DNA from: Dehalococcoidia bacterium
GTDB lineage: Bacteria; Chloroflexota; Dehalococcoidia; UBA2979
Assembly: GCA_965219085.1 (NCBI GenBank)
Contig: OZ244720.1
Span: forward strand, 3,040,001-3,104,000
Direction of reading: 5' to 3'
DNA length: 64,000 nucleotides
The notes under the pieces were generated by a model. That model was given only the letters and a program-made list of their open reading frames with translations. It made no database searches and was not told where the DNA came from. Shown piece after piece: positions 44,761 to 52,657 of the stretch; position 1 is the stretch's first letter; every line of letters starts with the position of its first letter. A program made the translations under genes and the position numbers.

Positions 44761-45897
44761 TCAGGCCGCCGCCTGCTCCCGGGCGCCGGCCTTCGGCTCT
44801 CCCGCGGATGCGGGGATACGCCGCAGCACCGCCCACAGGTAGCCCGCAAGTTCGCGGGCGACGGCGGTGTTCGCCACGACCGACGGCTTGCCGTGAGCGG
44901 CCAGCCGCCGGTGGCGGCGATAGAGCCGGGTCTGCGCCCGGTCGGCCAGCACCACGGCCCAGCCCGGCTGGCCCTCCCGCCGCTTGCGCAGGGCTGCGCC
45001 GACCCGCGGCGGGTGGCGGTAGTGCCAGGCGCTCTCCACCAGGATGCGGCGCACGTGGCTGTTCCCTGTCTTCGTGATCGGCCCCCGCCGCTGGCGCGCC
45101 CCGCTGCTGTGCTCGCTCGGCGTCAGCCCGAGGTAGGACATCAGCTGCCGGGCGCTGCCGAAGCGCGTGACGTCGCCGAGTTCGGCCAGCACCGTCATCG
45201 CCGTCACCGTGTCGACCCCGCGGAAGCAGCGCAGCAGCCCCACCGCCTCGCGGTAGTCGTCGCTGGCGGCACACGCGGCCAGTTCCTGCTCCAGCGTGCG
45301 CAGCCGCTCCTCCACGCCCTCGAGCGCGCGCAGGTAGTCGTCGAAGGTGGCCTGCGCGGCCGGGTGTTCGAAGCGCAGCGTCAGCAGCCAGCGGCGGTGC
45401 CGCAGCGTCCAGTTCCGCCCGTCGTAGGCGATGCCGCGCCGCAGCAGCAGCTTCGCCAGGCGGTGGCGCGCCCGCGTGCGGTCGGTCACGGCGTCCTCGC
45501 GCGCCCGGCAGAGGTCGCGCACCGCCTCCTGGTCGATGGTCGGGGGATGCACCGCCGTGAGCAGGTCCGCGCGCAGCAGCTCGGCGAGCTTCCGTGCGTC
45601 GCGACGGTCGGTCTTGACGCGGTCGCCGGGTCGCCTGGGGATCAGCGCCGGGGCGATCACCCGGCATTCGACGCCCTCGGCCTCCAGCCGGCGCTGCAGC
45701 GCGAAGCCGCCCGGCCCGGCCTCGTAGCAGGCCACGAGCGGCCCCGGCGCCATGCGCCGCAGGCGCTGCGCGAGCCGCTTCACCGCCTTCGGCTCGTTCG
45801 CCAGCTGCCACTCCTCGGGCCGCTCGGCCCCCGGCGCCAGCACCGCCACGTGGATCGCCCGCGCGTGTGCATCCATCCCTGCGTATGTGGTAGTCAT
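44761..45897 (-). CDS. IS110 family DEDD recombinase/transposase
   Basis: GMDAH, CYEAG, KTDRRDA, SEHSSG, ITKTGN. Confidence 0.93.
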   Translation of the reverse strand: MTTTYAGMDAHARAIHVAVLAPGAERPEEWQLANEPKAVKRLAQRLRRMAPGPLVACYEAGPGGFALQRRLEAEGVECRVIAPALIPRRPGDRVKTDRRDARKLAELLRADLLTAVHPPTIDQEAVRDLCRAREDAVTDRTRARHRLAKLLLRRGIAYDGRNWTLRHRRWLLTLRFEHPAAQATFDDYLRALEGVEERLRTLEQELAACAASDDYREAVGLLRCFRGVDTVTAMTVLAELGDVTRFGSARQLMSYLGLTPSEHSSGARQRRGPITKTGNSHVRRILVESAWHYRHPPRVGAALRKRREGQPGWAVVLADRAQTRLYRRHRRLAAHGKPSVVANTAVARELAGYLWAVLRRIPASAGEPKAGAREQAAA

Positions 45898-47174: not shown

Positions 47175-48351
47175 TGTCCTGAGTTGTTAACGCGATAAAC
47201 AAGTGGGTATGATGTTGGTACAGCGGGGTGTTGCCCGTGTGGGGCAGACGCTGGAGTGTCATGAGTACCCGACTTGGCCGGCCGACGGTGGCGGTTGTAC
47301 TGAGCGACGATGAGCGTGAGACGCTGGAACGGTGGGCGCGCCGACCGACATCAGCTCAGGCGTTGGCGCTGCGCTGCCGGATCGTGCTTGCTGCGGCAGA
47401 AGGGACCCCGAATACCGAGATCGCCGCGGCGCTTGGTTGCCATCCGGTGACCGCGGGCAAATGGCGCAGACGCTTTGCGCAGCGGCGGCTCGATGGACTG
47501 AGCGATGAGCCGCGCCCCGGGGCGCCGCGCACGATCACCGATGCACAGGTGGAAGCGGTGATCGTCAAGACGCTGGAGGAGCAGCCTCCCAACGCGACGC
47601 ACTGGTCGACCAGATCGATGGCAGCCGCGCTCGGGATGTCGCAGTCGGCGATCTCCAGGATCTGGCGCGCCTTCGGCCTGAAGCCGCACCTCGTGGAGAG
47701 CTTCAAGCTGTCGCCCGACCCGCAGTTCATCGACAAGGTCCGTGACGTGGCCGGGCTCTATCTCAACCCGCCCGACGCGGCGGTTGTGCTGTGCGTGGAC
47801 GAGAAGACCCAGATCCAGGCACTCGACCGCACCGCCCCGATGCTGCCGATGATGCCGAGCGTTCCGCGACGCCAGACCCACGACTACGTCCGTCACGGCA
47901 CCACCAATCTCTACGCGGCGCTTGACGCCGCCTCGGGCCACGTGATCGCGGACATGACCCCGCGACACCGTGCCCGGGAGTTCAAGCAGTTCCTCACCCT
48001 CATCGACCGCAGCGTGCCCGACGCACTCGCGGTGCATATCGTGTTGGACAACGTCGCCACGCACCGCACCCCGGAGATCCAGCGCTGGCTCCGGCGTCAT
48101 CCCCGGTTCACGTTTCATTTCACCCCGACCTACAGCTCCTGGATGAACCTCGTGGAGCGCTGGTTCGCGGAGCTCACCACCAAATGGCTCAGGCGCGGCA
48201 CTCATCACGGCGTCGCTGACCTGATCCGTGCAGTGGAGGCCTGGGTCGCCGACTGGAACGAGCACCCGCGCCCCTTCATCTGGCACAAGACCGCCGACCA
48301 AATCTTCGACAACCTCACCGGATATCTCAATCGCATTCCCAACTCAGGACA
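47175..48351 (+). mobile_element. IS630 family element flanked by CTAG
   Basis: IR TGTCCTGAGTTG / CAACTCAGGACA; CTAG at 47171-47174 and 48352-48355. Confidence 0.9.
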
Positions 48352-48355
48352 CTAG
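47261..48355 (+). CDS. IS630 family transposase (stop codon supplied by the target site)
   Basis: HTH, VDEKTQIQALDR, YVRHGT, VLDN, SSWMNLVERWF. Confidence 0.93.
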   Translation: MSTRLGRPTVAVVLSDDERETLERWARRPTSAQALALRCRIVLAAAEGTPNTEIAAALGCHPVTAGKWRRRFAQRRLDGLSDEPRPGAPRTITDAQVEAVIVKTLEEQPPNATHWSTRSMAAALGMSQSAISRIWRAFGLKPHLVESFKLSPDPQFIDKVRDVAGLYLNPPDAAVVLCVDEKTQIQALDRTAPMLPMMPSVPRRQTHDYVRHGTTNLYAALDAASGHVIADMTPRHRAREFKQFLTLIDRSVPDALAVHIVLDNVATHRTPEIQRWLRRHPRFTFHFTPTYSSWMNLVERWFAELTTKWLRRGTHHGVADLIRAVEAWVADWNEHPRPFIWHKTADQIFDNLTGYLNRIPNSGH

Positions 48356-49055
48356 CAGGGTGCTGAAAAAGGGGCGGTCGTCTGGCAGGATAGGACTGGC
48401 GGCGGGGGCGTAGCCTGGAGGCAGCCCCATGCGAGGCGACGCTGAGCGTCAGACCAACATGTTGCTGGCGGTGACGCCGGACTCCTTCATCCCCGGCGAC
48501 CACCCGATTCGCCGCATCAAGCCGATCGTCGATGCCGCGCTGCGGCGGCTCTCGCCGCTGTTCGACACGATGTACGCAACGAGCGGGCGGCCCTCGATCC
48601 CGCCCGAGCACCTGCTCAAGGCGAGCCTGTTGATCGCGCTCTACTCGATCCGCAGCGAGCGCCAGTTCTGCGAGCGGCTGCGCTACGACCTGCTGTTCAA
48701 GTGGTTCTTGGACCTCAACATCTCAGACGAGCCGTTCGACGCCTCGAGCTTCTCCAAGAACCGCGAGCGCCTGCTCGCTGCCGATGTCGCGCGCGCCTTC
48801 TTCGCAGAGGTGGTGGCCGAGGCAAAGCGCCGCCGGCTGCTCTCCGCCGACCACTTCACGGTGGACGGGACGCTGCTGGAGGCCTGGGCCTCGCTCAAGA
48901 GCTACCGCTCGCGCGACGAGCAAGAGCCGCCGCCAGGCGGCGGGCGTAACCCGGACGTGGACTTCCGCGGGCGGAGGCGCAGCCGCGATACGCATAGTTC
49001 CGGCACCGACCCGCAGGCGCGGCTGTACACGAAGACACCCCAGGACGCTAAGGGG

Positions 49056-50279
49056 TCAAGCAGCGAGGTCCTCGTGGGTGTAACGGTGTCCCCAGGCGGT
49101 CGTCTCGTCGTAGGGCAAGCGGCGCTTCAGGCAGCCATGTAGGTAGCCGACGAGACGGTTGCCGAGGGCGCGGAGCGCCTGGTGGTGGAGGTCGCCCGCG
49201 GCGCGCCGCCGATCGTAGAACTCGCGGCAGCCGGGGCTGGCCTGCAGGGAGCACAGCGCCCACTGGTCGACTGCGTCGTAGAGGCGCCGGTTGCGGACGA
49301 AGCGGGCTTTCACGGTGTGCTTGCGGCCGGATGCTACCGTCAGCGGCGACGTGCCGGCGTAGTTCCTGCGGGACTTCGCCGACTCGTAGCGTTCGGGGTC
49401 ATCCCCGAACTCGCCAAGCACCCGGGCGCCGAGGACCACGCCGAGACCGGGCAGGGAACGGTAGATACCGGCGTCCGGGTGCTGCTCAAAATGGCTCGCG
49501 AGCTCGGCCTCGAGCTCCTTGATCTGACGGTTGATCTCGCCGATCACCCTCATTGCCGCACTGGTGCTCGCGGCGAATGCCTTGCTCACCGCGGGCGGAG
49601 CCTCGAGCTGCGGTGAGCGCAGCGCGTCGCGGACCTCGGCGGCGCGCCGCTCGATGTTGCGCCGGCGGCCGCCGCGGCGCAGCGCGGAGCGGATCTGGGT
49701 GATGCTCAGCCGCGCCGCCTCGCGCGGGCCAGGCGCTGTCGCCAGCACGCCCACCGCGTCGTCGTGCGCGAGGTCGGGGAAGGCCTCCAGCGCACCCGGA
49801 AAGTACTCCCTGAGCGCGTTGCGCAGCCGGTTGGTCTGGCGGACGCGGTCCCAGATCAACTGCTGGTGGGCGCGGGCGAGGATGCGCACCGCGGCGGCTT
49901 CGTCGCTGTCGCCGGCGACCTCCCGGTGGTTGTGCCGGTCGGTGCGGACGAGGTCGGCGAGCAGCTTCGCGTCGCCGGCGTCGGACTTGGCGCCGCCGAC
50001 GTGGTGGCGGTCGCGGTAACGCGACGCCGAGCGCGGGTTGATGGCGTAGACGTGGTAGCCGGCCGCGAGCAGTGCCGCGACCCAGGGGCCGCGGTCCGTC
50101 TCGATGCCGACGATCACCTCACCCGGCCCTGAGGCGTACCCGGCGACCAGTCCGTGCAGGGCAGTGATGCCCTCCACCCCTTCGGGCAGACGCCGGGCGG
50201 CGAGCCGCTCGCCCGCGTCGTTCATGAGATGGACGTCGTGGTGGTCTTCGGACCAGTCATCGCCCAGGTACAAGGCCAT
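49056..50279 (-). CDS. IS110 family DEDD recombinase/transposase
   Basis: GDDWSEDHHD, GIE, KSDAGDA, YAGTSP.T.ASG. Confidence 0.93.
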   Translation of the reverse strand: MALYLGDDWSEDHHDVHLMNDAGERLAARRLPEGVEGITALHGLVAGYASGPGEVIVGIETDRGPWVAALLAAGYHVYAINPRSASRYRDRHHVGGAKSDAGDAKLLADLVRTDRHNHREVAGDSDEAAAVRILARAHQQLIWDRVRQTNRLRNALREYFPGALEAFPDLAHDDAVGVLATAPGPREAARLSITQIRSALRRGGRRRNIERRAAEVRDALRSPQLEAPPAVSKAFAASTSAAMRVIGEINRQIKELEAELASHFEQHPDAGIYRSLPGLGVVLGARVLGEFGDDPERYESAKSRRNYAGTSPLTVASGRKHTVKARFVRNRRLYDAVDQWALCSLQASPGCREFYDRRRAAGDLHHQALRALGNRLVGYLHGCLKRRLPYDETTAWGHRYTHEDLAA

Positions 50280-50529
50280 CGTGTTTCAGTTCCTCTCCCG
50301 CTTCGCGCTGCTCGGTGCGACCCGGCGGGTTGGTTCCTGCGACGGCCTAATGGATCAGTGCTCGATGGCACGACACCCCATGAGTGCTGCAGAACAACCC
50401 GGAATACCAGCAGGGGCTCGGTCTTCGTGAAGCGGTCCAGAAGCCGCAGGGATCAGCTGAGAGCTCACCGGCTGGCAGGGTCCAGAACCAGTCTGCCAGA
50501 GAACCTCTGGCCGCTGGTCGGGCCCCATT
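50280..50529 (-). ncRNA. Putative bridge RNA
   Basis: Guide-like matches at 50448-50456 and 50423-50429 (target), 50372-50380 and 50347-50353 (donor); exact RNA ends unknown. Confidence 0.75.
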
Positions 50530-50780
50530 AGGGGTCGGGGCAGACGGCGAAACTGAGCTACATGGGCCATCTGCTGACCGAGAACCGCCACGGCCTGGTG
50601 CTGGACGTGGAGTTGACCGAGGCGAACGGGTACGCCGAGCGCGAGGCGGCGGTCACGATGCTGGAGCGCAGCGTGAGCGGCTGCGGGACGCTGGGCGCCG
50701 ACCGCGGCTACGACACGCGCGACTTCGTGGCGGAACTGCGCGCTCGCGGCGTGACGCCGCACGTGGCGCAAAACGACCGC

Positions 50781-52145
50781 GGTCACGTCCCTGCAAGTGG
50801 TGTAACAGCACCATCCTGATCATTTGCTAGCTGGCGGTCTGCAGTAGCACCTCCTCGCCTGAGGCGACCTCGGCCACGGCCGCCGGCAGCGGCTGCAGCA
50901 TCGTCATGTAGCGCCGCCCCTCCGCCCACTCGTCGTGCTGCTCGGCGAGCACGGCGCCGACCAGCCGCACGACGGCGGCACGGTTGGGGAAGATGCCGAC
51001 GACGTTGGTGCGCCGCCGGATCTCCTTGTTGAGCCGTTCCAGCGGGTTGTTCGACCAGACCTGCCGCCAGTGGGCGACCGGGAAGGCGGTGAATGCCAGG
51101 ATCTCCGGGTCGGCGTCGGCGAGCAGCGCCGCGGCTTCGGGGAAGCGCTCGGCGAGCTGCTCCACCACGCGGGCGTGTTGGGCCTGCACCTCGGCCGCCG
51201 AGGACTGCTCGTAGATCGTCCGCACCGTCGTCGCCACCAGCTTCTCGGCGCTCTTCGGCACCCGGGTCAGCAGGTTGCGCATGAAGTGCGTGCGGCAGCG
51301 CTGCCAGGAGGCGCCGGCGAAGACCGTCGCGATCGCCGCCCGCAGTCCCTGGTGGGCGTCCGAGGTCACGAGCTCGACCCCGGACAGGCCGCGCGCCACG
51401 AGGCCGCGCAGGAAGCCCAGCCAGAACGCCCCGTCCTCGGAGGTGCCGACGTCGATGCCCAGCAGCTCGCGCTTGCCGGAGGCGTTGACGGCGGTGGCGA
51501 CGACGACGCTCACCTGCACGACGCGGCCCTCCTCGCGCACGAGCTGGGTGAGCGCGTCGAGCCAGAGGTAGCGGTAGGGGCCTGAGTCGAGGGGCCGCTC
51601 GAGGAAGCTCGAGACGACCTCGTCGAGTTCAGCGCACATGCGCGAGACCTGGCTCTTGGAGATGCCGTCGCAGCCGAGCGAGCGCACGAGGTCGTCGACG
51701 CGGCGCGTCGAAACGCCCTCGACGTAGGCCTGCGTGACCACGGATACCAGGGCGCGCTCTGAGCGCCGCCGCGGCTCGAGCAGCGAGGGGAAGTAGCTGC
51801 CCTCGCGCAGCTTCGGGATGCCCAGTTCGATCGTGCCCACGCGCGTGTCCCAGCGCCGCGGCCGGTAGCCGTTGCGCCGGGTCAGGCGCGTCTCGCTGCG
51901 CTCGCCGTGAGCGGCGCCGATCTGCGCCGAGACCTCGGCGTCCATCACCGCCTGGGCGAGCAGCGCGACCGCCTCGCGCAGGAAGTCGAGGTCAGCTCCG
52001 TCCGTCTGCTTGCGCAGCAGTTCCAACAAGTCCACGCTCTCCTTGACCACAGTCGTCCTCCTCCACGTGACTCTTCTTCTTGTGAAGGATGGCGCTGTGG
52101 TCTCCTACGTCTACCTCCTGTGACACCACTTCCTGGGACGCTACT
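50781..52145 (-). mobile_element. IS256 family element with 8-bp target duplication ACGACCGC
   Basis: TSD at 50773-50780 and 52146-52153; imperfect IR CGTCCCnGnAAGTGGTGTnAC. Confidence 0.9.
50827..52050 (-). CDS. IS256 family transposase
   Basis: RNGYR, IPKLREGSYFPS, YVEGVSTR, WLDA, SDAH.GL, QRCRTHF, ERLNKEIRRR. Confidence 0.94.
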   Translation of the reverse strand: MVKESVDLLELLRKQTDGADLDFLREAVALLAQAVMDAEVSAQIGAAHGERSETRLTRRNGYRPRRWDTRVGTIELGIPKLREGSYFPSLLEPRRRSERALVSVVTQAYVEGVSTRRVDDLVRSLGCDGISKSQVSRMCAELDEVVSSFLERPLDSGPYRYLWLDALTQLVREEGRVVQVSVVVATAVNASGKRELLGIDVGTSEDGAFWLGFLRGLVARGLSGVELVTSDAHQGLRAAIATVFAGASWQRCRTHFMRNLLTRVPKSAEKLVATTVRTIYEQSSAAEVQAQHARVVEQLAERFPEAAALLADADPEILAFTAFPVAHWRQVWSNNPLERLNKEIRRRTNVVGIFPNRAAVVRLVGAVLAEQHDEWAEGRRYMTMLQPLPAAVAEVASGEEVLLQTAS

Positions 52146-52657
52146 ACGACCGCGGCCGCCGCAGCGCCGTGGATGGGCGCACCACGCGGCATCGCGGCTA
52201 CAGGCAGAGTCAGAAGCGACGCAAGATCGTGGAGCAGGTCTTCGGCTGGATGAAGACCGTGGGCGGCGGGCGCAAGCTGCGTTTCGTGGGCCGCGAGCGC
52301 AACCGCTGTTGGCTGGAGCTCACCGCCGCCGCCTACAACCTCGTGCGCATGGCCAGGCTCGGAGACCGCCGCGGCGTAGGCGCAGTGCGCCCTCCGCCCC
52401 GCCAGGGAGCCCTCAGAGGCCCCCGGGGGCCGGTCAGGAGGCCACGATCACGAACCCGGAGGCGGCCTCAAGCCGCCTCTCGCCACTCCGAGACCCCGGA
52501 AGGCGCTTCTTCAGCACCCTGCTAGCCGATATGCCGCCGCACGAGCCGCCCGGAACGCAGGCCGGAGGCGGTCCCTGCGCGCGACCGCGATCACGGCGGT
52601 CCTGGGTGCGCTCGCTTTCGCGTTTGCGCTGTGGGGAGTGCTGCCGGTATCGGGTAA

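Follow-up and report, generated by a model that had tools for sequence, protein, structure and literature searches.

Introduction

Two RNA-guided insertion sequences (ISs) of the IS110 family, IS621 of Escherichia coli and ISPpu10 of Pseudomonas putida, provide the descriptions against which we compared an IS110-group element found in a window of 64,000 nucleotides (the whole stretch of DNA that was analysed) from a Dehalococcoidia bacterium (GenBank assembly GCA_965219085.1, contig OZ244720.1, positions 3,040,001 to 3,104,000). In the IS621 layout, the bridge RNA's guides for the left target (LTG) and left donor (LDG) run in top-strand sense and base-pair to the bottom strand, those for the right target (RTG) and right donor (RDG) are top-strand sequence in reverse complement, and the core lies within each guide (Durrant 2024, PMC11208160). 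The roles of the catalytic residues D11, E60, D102, D105 and S241-G242 of IS621 are taken from Hiraizumi 2024 (PMC11208158), which also gives the rule for handshake guides, namely non-cognate pairing after strand exchange with no cognate pairing before it. Promoters formed at the joined ends are known for IS621 (PMC11208160) and for ISPpu10 (preprint 10.64898/2026.03.19.712850). The same preprint reports U:G wobble in ISPpu10 and G:T wobble in IS621, and its mutagenesis of ISPpu10 indicated that the LTG tolerates distal changes but not core-adjacent ones and that the RTG is strict. In members of the IS1111 group the left end is short and the right end long, and there are sub-terminal inverted repeats of 7-17 bp (PMC11208160).

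We consider it very probable (about 93%) that the present element is an autonomous IS110-group element that moves by bridge-RNA-guided recombination as IS621 does. Its guide is programmed for a 14-bp site in an IS5-like transposase gene, and every copy of this site in the genome is occupied. The anatomy of the element, the complementarity of its guides, the sites of its copies, the covariation with relatives and the catalytic residues were obtained directly, and the element is complete and, judged by its sequence, probably active. It is a fresh member of a family that is already known, with nothing new in mechanism. An earlier note on this DNA had proposed the IS621 bridge-RNA layout for this locus; the layout found here matches that of Durrant 2024 (PMC11208160) and is backed by the covariation, the catalytic residues and the genomic copies.

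Element anatomy and recombinase

The element occupies positions 49033..50531 of the window on the minus strand, as do all features given below unless a strand is named. Both CT core copies included, it measures 1499 bp (1497 bp for the element proper), and its ends are common to six genomic copies. The junctions read ...CCGACCC-CT|AATGG... on the left, with the core dinucleotide at 50530..50531, and ...TGGGGTGT-CT|TCGTG... on the right, with the core at 49033..49034; CT was observed at both junctions in 6/6 genomic copies. From the sequence and the genomic copies, the left target half-site CCGACCC was placed at 50532..50538, within the interrupted IS5-like transposase gene, and the right half-site TCGTG at 49028..49032. 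When the 1497 bp were deleted in silico, a single open frame of the interrupted transposase was restored (...ARLYTKGSGQTAKLSYMGHLL...), and the uninterrupted peptide of this frame is also encoded in 6/6 free sites sampled in congeneric genomes. The empty site, target CCGACCC-CT-TCGTG and donor named in the earlier note are thus borne out by the restored frame.

The non-coding left end (50280..50529) extends for 250 nt before the ATG and encodes the predicted bridge RNA, and a purine-rich stretch GGGAGAGGAA at 50290..50299, ahead of the ATG, is a likely ribosome-binding site. The right end comprises only the 22 nt past the recombinase stop codon. With 250 nt on the left, 22 nt on the right and all guides in the left end, the element is assigned to the IS110 group and not to IS1111. 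By inspection, with no formal repeat search run, the ends CTAATGGGG and GGGGTGTCT are not inverted repeats.

The recombinase gene (49056..50279) encodes 407 aa with a RuvC-like DEDD domain (D8, E60, D100 and D103) and a Tnp domain (S317-G318). The protein matched Pfam PF01548 (DEDD_Tnp_IS110; 2.7e-37, 128.4 bits) and PF02371 (Transposase_20; 4.1e-11, 43.5 bits), both over cut-off, as well as the NCBIfam equivalog NF033542, "IS110 family RNA-guided transposase", with a score of 191.6 bits where the cut-off is 140. Among relatives only the IS621 recombinase has a solved structure (chain 8wt6_A), and phmmer aligned two short stretches with it (E = 5.6e-08). Residues D8, D100, D103 and S317-G318 align directly with D11, D102, D105 and S241-G242 of IS621, and E60, which is part of a GIE motif, lies two residues off the IS621 E60 column and was matched by eye after a shift. 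The suggestion of a distinct high-GC RNA-guided recombinase holds in so far as this is a new family member and goes no further, the protein class having already been named by NCBIfam.

A match to the Rfam family Ms_AS-4, a small RNA of Actinobacteria, was also observed at 49374-49455 on the plus strand (63.9 bits, threshold 50), antisense to the conserved stretch of the recombinase gene that codes for the Tnp domain. Conserved nucleotides in IS110 genes are its most likely cause, and an antisense RNA at this position is possible.

Guides of the predicted bridge RNA

All four guide strings were located in the left end in the order and strand sense of IS621, exactly where the earlier note had placed them. 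The LTG CTGATCCCT at 50456-50448 (CUGAUCC plus core CU; RNA form CUGAUCCCU) has the sense of CCGACCC-CT, and its U faces G at two positions to give two rU:dG wobbles, the same two G:U pairs that the earlier note had counted. The RTG CACGAAG at 50429-50423 (CACGA plus core AG) is the reverse complement of CT-TCGTG. The LDG TGGGGTGTC at 50380-50372, that is UGGGGUGU plus C (RNA form UGGGGUGUC), agrees in sense with the right end TGGGGTGT-C, and the RDG CCATTAG at 50353-50347 (CCAUU plus core AG) is the reverse complement of CT-AATGG. The match claimed for the LDG stands for the left donor and the first core base but not for the next base, which is G and not T. By their coordinates, the cores lie 25 nt apart in the target loop and 24 nt apart in the donor loop, in agreement with the 24-25 nt previously given.

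The register of the LTG was set by alignment with relatives. Registers set by the longest hairpin were rejected because the stem can extend into the core and the register then shifts, and alignment columns were used instead. We noticed that the core bases of the guides are not uniform. The LDG core of the window reads CG, 32/62 unique pairs of relatives have a base other than U at the second core position of the LTG (CC or CA, not CU; alignment columns 107-108), and the RTG core is always AG in the relatives.

Candidate handshake guides that would follow the rule of Hiraizumi 2024 (PMC11208158) were seen after both right guides. In the target loop, the putative handshake guide AC (50421..50422) pairs with donor positions 6-7 (GT) and not with target positions 6-7 (CC). 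In the donor loop, the putative guide G (50346), which occupies an invariant column, pairs with target position 7 (C), a residue found as C in 58/62 unique natural sites; the second handshake position of this loop (C) is not complementary to target C6. Among the 22 left ends that were aligned, the AGAC that follows the RTG and the G that follows the RDG never vary, and the YG next to AGAC is nearly constant.

The chance occurrence of the guides was evaluated with 20000 dinucleotide shuffles of the non-coding left end, with a wobble-aware pattern for the LTG. The guide string was held by 2996 shuffles for the LTG, 448 for the RTG, 17 for the LDG and 26 for the RDG; two or more strings occurred in 78/20000 and all four in 0/20000. 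The LTG match on its own is therefore weak, as 2996 shuffles contain the string, but the set of four is not.

Genomic copies and target specificity

The genome is a single contig of 3.31 Mb with 69.8% GC. It holds six full copies of the element, which are 99.9-100% identical and all have intact recombinase genes. Five of them sit at CCGACCC-CT-TCGTG inside copies of the IS5-like element. The sixth, L003, sits at an unrelated locus, GGGATCT-CT-TCGTG, where the core and right half are perfect and the left half agrees at 4/7 positions. The flanks of the other copies had been set beforehand as the comparison that could refute the guides, and they agree with them at the same 14-mer in 5/6 cases and in the core and right half of the sixth.

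The host-IS flanks of L001, L002 and the group L004-6 differ at 16-28 of 392 nt and the inserts are identical, so that at least three independent insertions at the same 14-mer, plus L003, are indicated. The three copies L004, L005 and L006 may represent one insertion event that was copied, since their 392-nt flanks are identical. It could be argued from this group, which also shares a second nested element, that the distribution of the element mostly results from copying of composites (host IS plus insert) or from recombination between host ISs, and that the element itself may be immobile; the lack of a circle junction in the assembly would fit such an account. However, composite copying does not explain inserts that are 100% identical within host copies that differ, nor does it explain the copy at an unrelated locus or the six intact recombinase genes. 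On these three grounds at least four recent independent insertions are needed, and we regard the copying account as very unlikely and bridge-RNA-guided movement as the better one.

No free site fitting the wobble-aware guide pattern was found in this genome. Seven host-IS copies that are uninterrupted at the target site, six of which are full-length and intact, carry CCGCTCC-CT-TTGTG, which differs from the guide by one A:G mismatch, one left-side wobble and one right-side G:T. In related genomes the wobble pattern was found free in 27 places, distributed over 11 of 40 genomes, compared with 5 for a reversed-pattern control. All of the six free sites sampled, from three congeneric genomes, lie within intact homologues of the host IS. 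These three genomes hold only relatives of the element with 83-86% identity, and the eight related-element loci sampled in congeneric genomes all have other target guides. Cognate sites are thus filled where the guide is present and open where it is absent.

Some variation among the copies was also noted. The right ends of L004 and L005 have an extra G in the left-donor G-run (TGGGGGTGT-CT), which leaves an LDG mismatch only at the most distal position, and L006 carries one additional C near element position 56 together with a silent G to A substitution at position 405. A further 83% relative in this genome, L007, is truncated at its 5' side at the start codon and frameshifted, and hence has no left end to compare. 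It lies at C1:893432-894621 and abuts an intact host IS at 894627-895928, with a fragment of the type of element B (the second nested element, described below) upstream.

Guide and flank covariation among relatives

Relatives were collected by a scan of one genome per species, which gave 80 loci. Most occur in genomes labelled Dehalococcoidia, the closest having 76-86% protein identity, and some occur in Smaragdicoccus and Actinomycetota with 66-69%. Among the 81 sequences, window included, three had no upstream DNA and two (L036 and L050) were dropped for aberrant left ends. The 76 loci used gave 62 unique guide-site pairs in 22 guide classes, and a right flank was available for 56 of the pairs.

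When each LTG was compared with its own flank, 75.1% of positions were identical and a further 13.4% formed wobbles, as opposed to 38.0% and 14.6% when classes were mismatched. The RTG was paired with its own flank at 94.3% of positions, compared with 27.9% in mismatched classes. The observed paired fraction of 0.908 was reached in 0/2000 permutations of the class labels (permuted mean 0.571, maximum 0.766). The ends and the donor guides were observed to be conserved jointly: the right end TGGGATGT goes with the LDG UGGGAUGU, and the LDG co-varies with the right end by a change of G to A on both (L078/L083/L084 against L079/L080/L083/L084).

These comparisons also bear on the older view of IS110 elements, in which the protein would read the target DNA directly and the guide strings would be by-products of an element that carries its own ends. 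Donor guides necessarily resemble the termini of their own element, and the frequency of the wobble-aware LTG string in shuffled left ends could be taken in the same sense. The target guides, however, match flanking host DNA and not the DNA of the element, they change with the flanks over 22 classes while the protein remains 76-86% identical, and RTG pairing far exceeds that of the controls. Direct reading by the protein is thus even less probable than composite copying, and guidance by the RNA is preferred.

The mismatches between guides and flanks are unevenly distributed. Wobbles form 54% of the non-identical LTG positions as against 24% in controls, and they are mostly a guide U facing G (50/58). 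The core-adjacent LTG positions 6 and 7 match in 58 and 59 of the 62 pairs, respectively, and positions 1-5 in 33-48 of them. The RTG pairs at the core and the next four bases in 53-56 of 56 pairs and at the fifth base in 46/56, pairing being random beyond; not one wobble was found among the 280 RTG cells within five bases after the core. The wobble tolerance that the earlier note saw in this element is real but not new, since U:G and G:T wobbles are already reported for ISPpu10 and IS621 in the preprint (10.64898/2026.03.19.712850).

A recurring site was noticed among the relatives. L017, L033, L038, L047 and many other loci sit at CCCCGCC-CT-CTCCC, which is followed by a GC-rich hairpin such as CTCCCGCGAGGGGAG; recurring as it does across genomes, this site looks like a target of the repetitive extragenic palindromic (REP) type. 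L050 (about 1200-1500) has a normal recombinase and right end, its donor-loop region differs and it does not begin with CTAATGGG; L036 is likewise without a normal left terminus. Both may be chimeric or rearranged elements. Among the matches listed for literature on bridge RNA with Mycobacterium or Chloroflexota there was no paper on this clade, which does not prove that none exists, and close relatives may already be among the bridge RNAs predicted for ISfinder elements in the supplement of Durrant 2024.

Structure of the predicted bridge RNA

Applied to 22 left ends, RNAalifold recovered both stems of the target-binding loop, outer and inner, unaided and with compensatory changes. It also paired the RDG with the first bases of the element, which is the complementarity of guide and donor and not a stem of the RNA. 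The structure that was then scored consists of a 5' stem-loop, both target-loop stems and three donor-loop stems. The 5' stem-loop (50487..50518; ACCAG/CTGGT and GCCAG/CTGGC) contains helix 1, paired in 96% of cells, and helix 2, which is weakly supported because only 66% are paired. The outer stem of the target-binding loop (5' arm 50461..50476, 3' arm 50406..50419) forms helix 3, with 98.4% paired and four double-change pairs, and the inner hairpin (50432..50447; GCGG...CCGC) forms helix 4, with 98.9% paired and 3/4 pairs changed on both sides.

In the donor-binding loop, the 5' arms of the outer stems (GGGTTG, TTCT and GCAC) are at 50384..50400 and the 3' arms (GTCGC, GGAA and CAACCC) at 50327..50343. 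Helices 5 and 6 of these stems are paired in 91.8% and 100% of cells, with three and one double-change pairs, respectively. The inner hairpin (50358..50371; GTGC...GCAC), helix 7, is invariant and is therefore uninformative on covariation. The donor-loop outer stems were drawn by eye from the sequences under test, and the distal stem GGGTTG/CAACCC, seen by eye only, was excluded from the counts. A first structure string that contained wrong occurrences of short arms was discarded and replaced by a corrected one.

As a whole, the scored structure was paired in 94.0% of cells compared with 25-46% for slid partners, a comparison that favours the structure because part of it was drawn from the same sequences. 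Sixteen pairs were changed on both sides, and the covariation score was reached in 0/500 shuffles. Stems flanking both loops show compensatory changes, and by their coordinates the guides fall on the unpaired sides of both loops. The two internal loops anticipated for the left-end fold are seen in the structure scored on 22 left ends, which the fold of the single sequence does not reproduce. No Rfam family covers the left end in a search of 48500-51000 at E values up to 10, in which Ms_AS-4 was the sole match above threshold. That the guides match by chance and the left end is a plain long 5' untranslated leader, as its shuffle-like fold energy and the lack of an Rfam match might hint, has a negligible probability in view of the complete absence of the four-guide set from the shuffles, the compensatory changes in the loop-flanking stems, and guides that are conserved or co-vary just as the model requires.

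Predicted junction promoter and proposed mechanism

The hexamer TTGACC (49054..49059), which resembles a -35 box and overlaps the stop codon, is half of a predicted promoter that would form only on joining of the ends. When the right end is joined to the left end, the sequence reads TTGACC, an 18-nt spacer and TCTAAT (49035-49033 plus 50529-50527). Among the relatives, 24/25 distinct right ends keep TTGAC at a distance of 17 or 18 nt to TCTAAT, and TTGAC uses the Ala codon GCT, which would be expected to be rare in a 70% GC genome. The scan of the integrated copy for promoters and terminators gave no sites, with no sigma-70-like site among them. The arrangement TTGACC-18-TCTAAT that the earlier note had drawn would form on joining of the ends; its weak part is the -10 box, in which C takes the place of the usual A at position 2.

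Transcription from the junction, circle formation and the chemistry are modelled here on IS621 and ISPpu10. Excision would yield a circle in which the right end meets the left end, and this join would create both the donor site TGGGGTGT-CT-AATGG and the hybrid promoter. This promoter would drive a bridge RNA of about 200 nt and then the recombinase. The RNA would fold into a 5' stem-loop and two internal loops, of which the donor loop would grip the circle junction via UGGGGUGUC and CCAUUAG, and the target loop would place CUGAUCCCU on the bottom strand of CCGACCC-CT, with its two rU:dG wobbles, and CACGAAG on the top strand of CT-TCGTG. The two nucleotides after each right guide would act as handshake guides in strand exchange. 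A tetramer of the DEDD/Ser recombinase would cut beside CT, exchange strands and resolve the junction, and the element would end up flanked by two copies of CT.

Several observations weigh against guided movement of this kind. The site of L003 is mismatched to the LTG at 3/7 positions, the core-adjacent one included. Guide class L053/L054 agrees with its left flank at only 1/7 positions plus one wobble, though its RTG matches at 7/7, and L035, L081 and L088 also match poorly on the left side. Since loci that share a genome, or come from related ones, do not count as independent, the covariation figures overstate the sample size, and the slid controls are subject to the bias towards stems drawn by eye. 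The single-sequence fold of the left end is no stabler than shuffles (z = -0.24) and does not reproduce the consensus structure. In addition, the predicted junction promoter would fail the promoter-scan rule because TCTAAT has C in place of the near-invariant consensus A at position 2, its spacer is 18 nt, and the junction of right and left ends is absent from the assembly.

Host insertion sequence and neighbouring elements

The interrupted transposase has DUF772 and DDE_Tnp_1 domains. The first part of the host IS5-like element, with the DUF772 N-terminus of the transposase, is at 48352..49032 (plus strand) and continues at 50532-50782 and 52146-52525. This host IS is also split by an IS256-like element (50783-52145; Transposase_mut gene 50827-52050, 7.2e-134). 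The host sequences that flank the latter overlap by about 10 bp, which suggests a target duplication. An IS630-like gene (47228-48355) adjoins the host IS. At 45019-45741 (minus strand; about 30% identity over 251 aa by tblastn with the element B protein) there is a third type of IS110-family element, a distant one, with three more copies elsewhere in the genome.

The three composite host copies L004, L005 and L006 carry a second IS110-family element, element B, about 130 bp from the first (L005:3139-4500; genome C1:1204283-1205812). Its protein of 338 aa scores 228.6 bits with NF033542. Its left end measures 164 nt up to the start codon and its right end 339 nt, sub-terminal inverted repeats of about 17 bp are present, and the element is considered IS1111-like because of these repeats and the long right end. 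Within the right end, GUUCAAGAG corresponds to the left flank plus core (8/9 with one U:G) and, 21 nt from it, CGGUAGCG to the reverse complement of the core plus right flank (7/8). At least 11 copies of this type are present in the genome, with 85-100% protein identity, and they interrupt six host-IS copies, one divergent copy included. Two unrelated RNA-guided elements thus appear to carry guides for the same IS5-like transposase gene, at sites about 130 bp apart.

Among 14 substantial host-IS copies, eight are broken by IS110-family elements and six are intact. The intact copies retain a perfect element B site and differ at 3/14 target positions of the IS110-group element. There is no statistical support for their being escape variants, 5.5% of the 14-nt windows in a 939-column alignment holding at least three differences. 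A contest between insertion sequences, in which another IS would offer a renewable safe harbour and be disabled in passing, wobble would widen the reach of the guide and the surviving host-IS lineages would be escape variants, is an unlikely scenario.

Significance and comparison with known systems

The interest of this element lies in a natural panel of reprogrammed guides and in the targeting of one IS inside another, not in the mechanism. The clade, made up of Dehalococcoidia-labelled genomes with actinobacterial cousins, is rich in GC and combines proteins that are 76-86% identical with at least 22 target guides, which makes it a ready panel of naturally reprogrammed bridge RNAs. It includes a natural control for specificity: in the presence of the guide all cognate sites are taken, and in its absence they are free. 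The natural mismatch statistics agree with published mutagenesis in that the left guide is tolerant and rich in wobbles and the right guide is strict. For the engineering of bridge recombinases, an orthologue that is rich in GC and has a longer right guide might be of interest, and IS-inside-IS targeting bears on how insertion sequences limit the cost to their host.

IS110 genes carried by plasmids of Rhodococcus (NC_012521.1 of Rhodococcus opacus B4 is an example) and Mycobacterium have 66-70% protein identity over 97-100% of the length. The relatives in Smaragdicoccus and Actinomycetota share the left-end architecture and the ends of the present element, whereas their guides and hosts differ. 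The IS1111 group, with its seekRNA or right-end bridge RNA, has the same recombinase family and the same RNA-guide principle, but the 250-nt left end and 22-nt right end of the present element set it apart, and element B has the IS1111 features instead.

The preprint on ISPpu10 describes a junction promoter, the same layout of target-binding and donor-binding loops (TBL and DBL) and a U:G wobble at the interface of the LTG with the left target, and the natural sites examined here show the left/right asymmetry seen in its mutagenesis. ISPpu10 requires a stem-loop in its REP target, whereas no obvious hairpin was seen at the present target by inspection, no dedicated test being made. Some relatives of the present element do insert beside the GC-rich hairpin CTCCCGCGAGGGGAG.

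The likeness to IS621 extends to the DEDD and Ser catalytic set, the CT core, the long left end and the short right end. It also includes a predicted bridge RNA that has two internal loops besides its 5' stem-loop, guides (LTG, RTG, LDG and RDG) that agree in order and strand sense, handshake positions after the right guides and a promoter, predicted here, that is split over the circle junction. The IS621 protein differs in having 326 aa rather than 407 aa, with weak similarity, and the GC content of the present element is 70%. The RTG of the present clade pairs 4-5 bases past the core, compared with the four described for IS621. Finally, the natural targets of IS621 are reportedly REP-like repeats, whereas the present element, by its sequence, targets a site inside the transposase gene of another IS.

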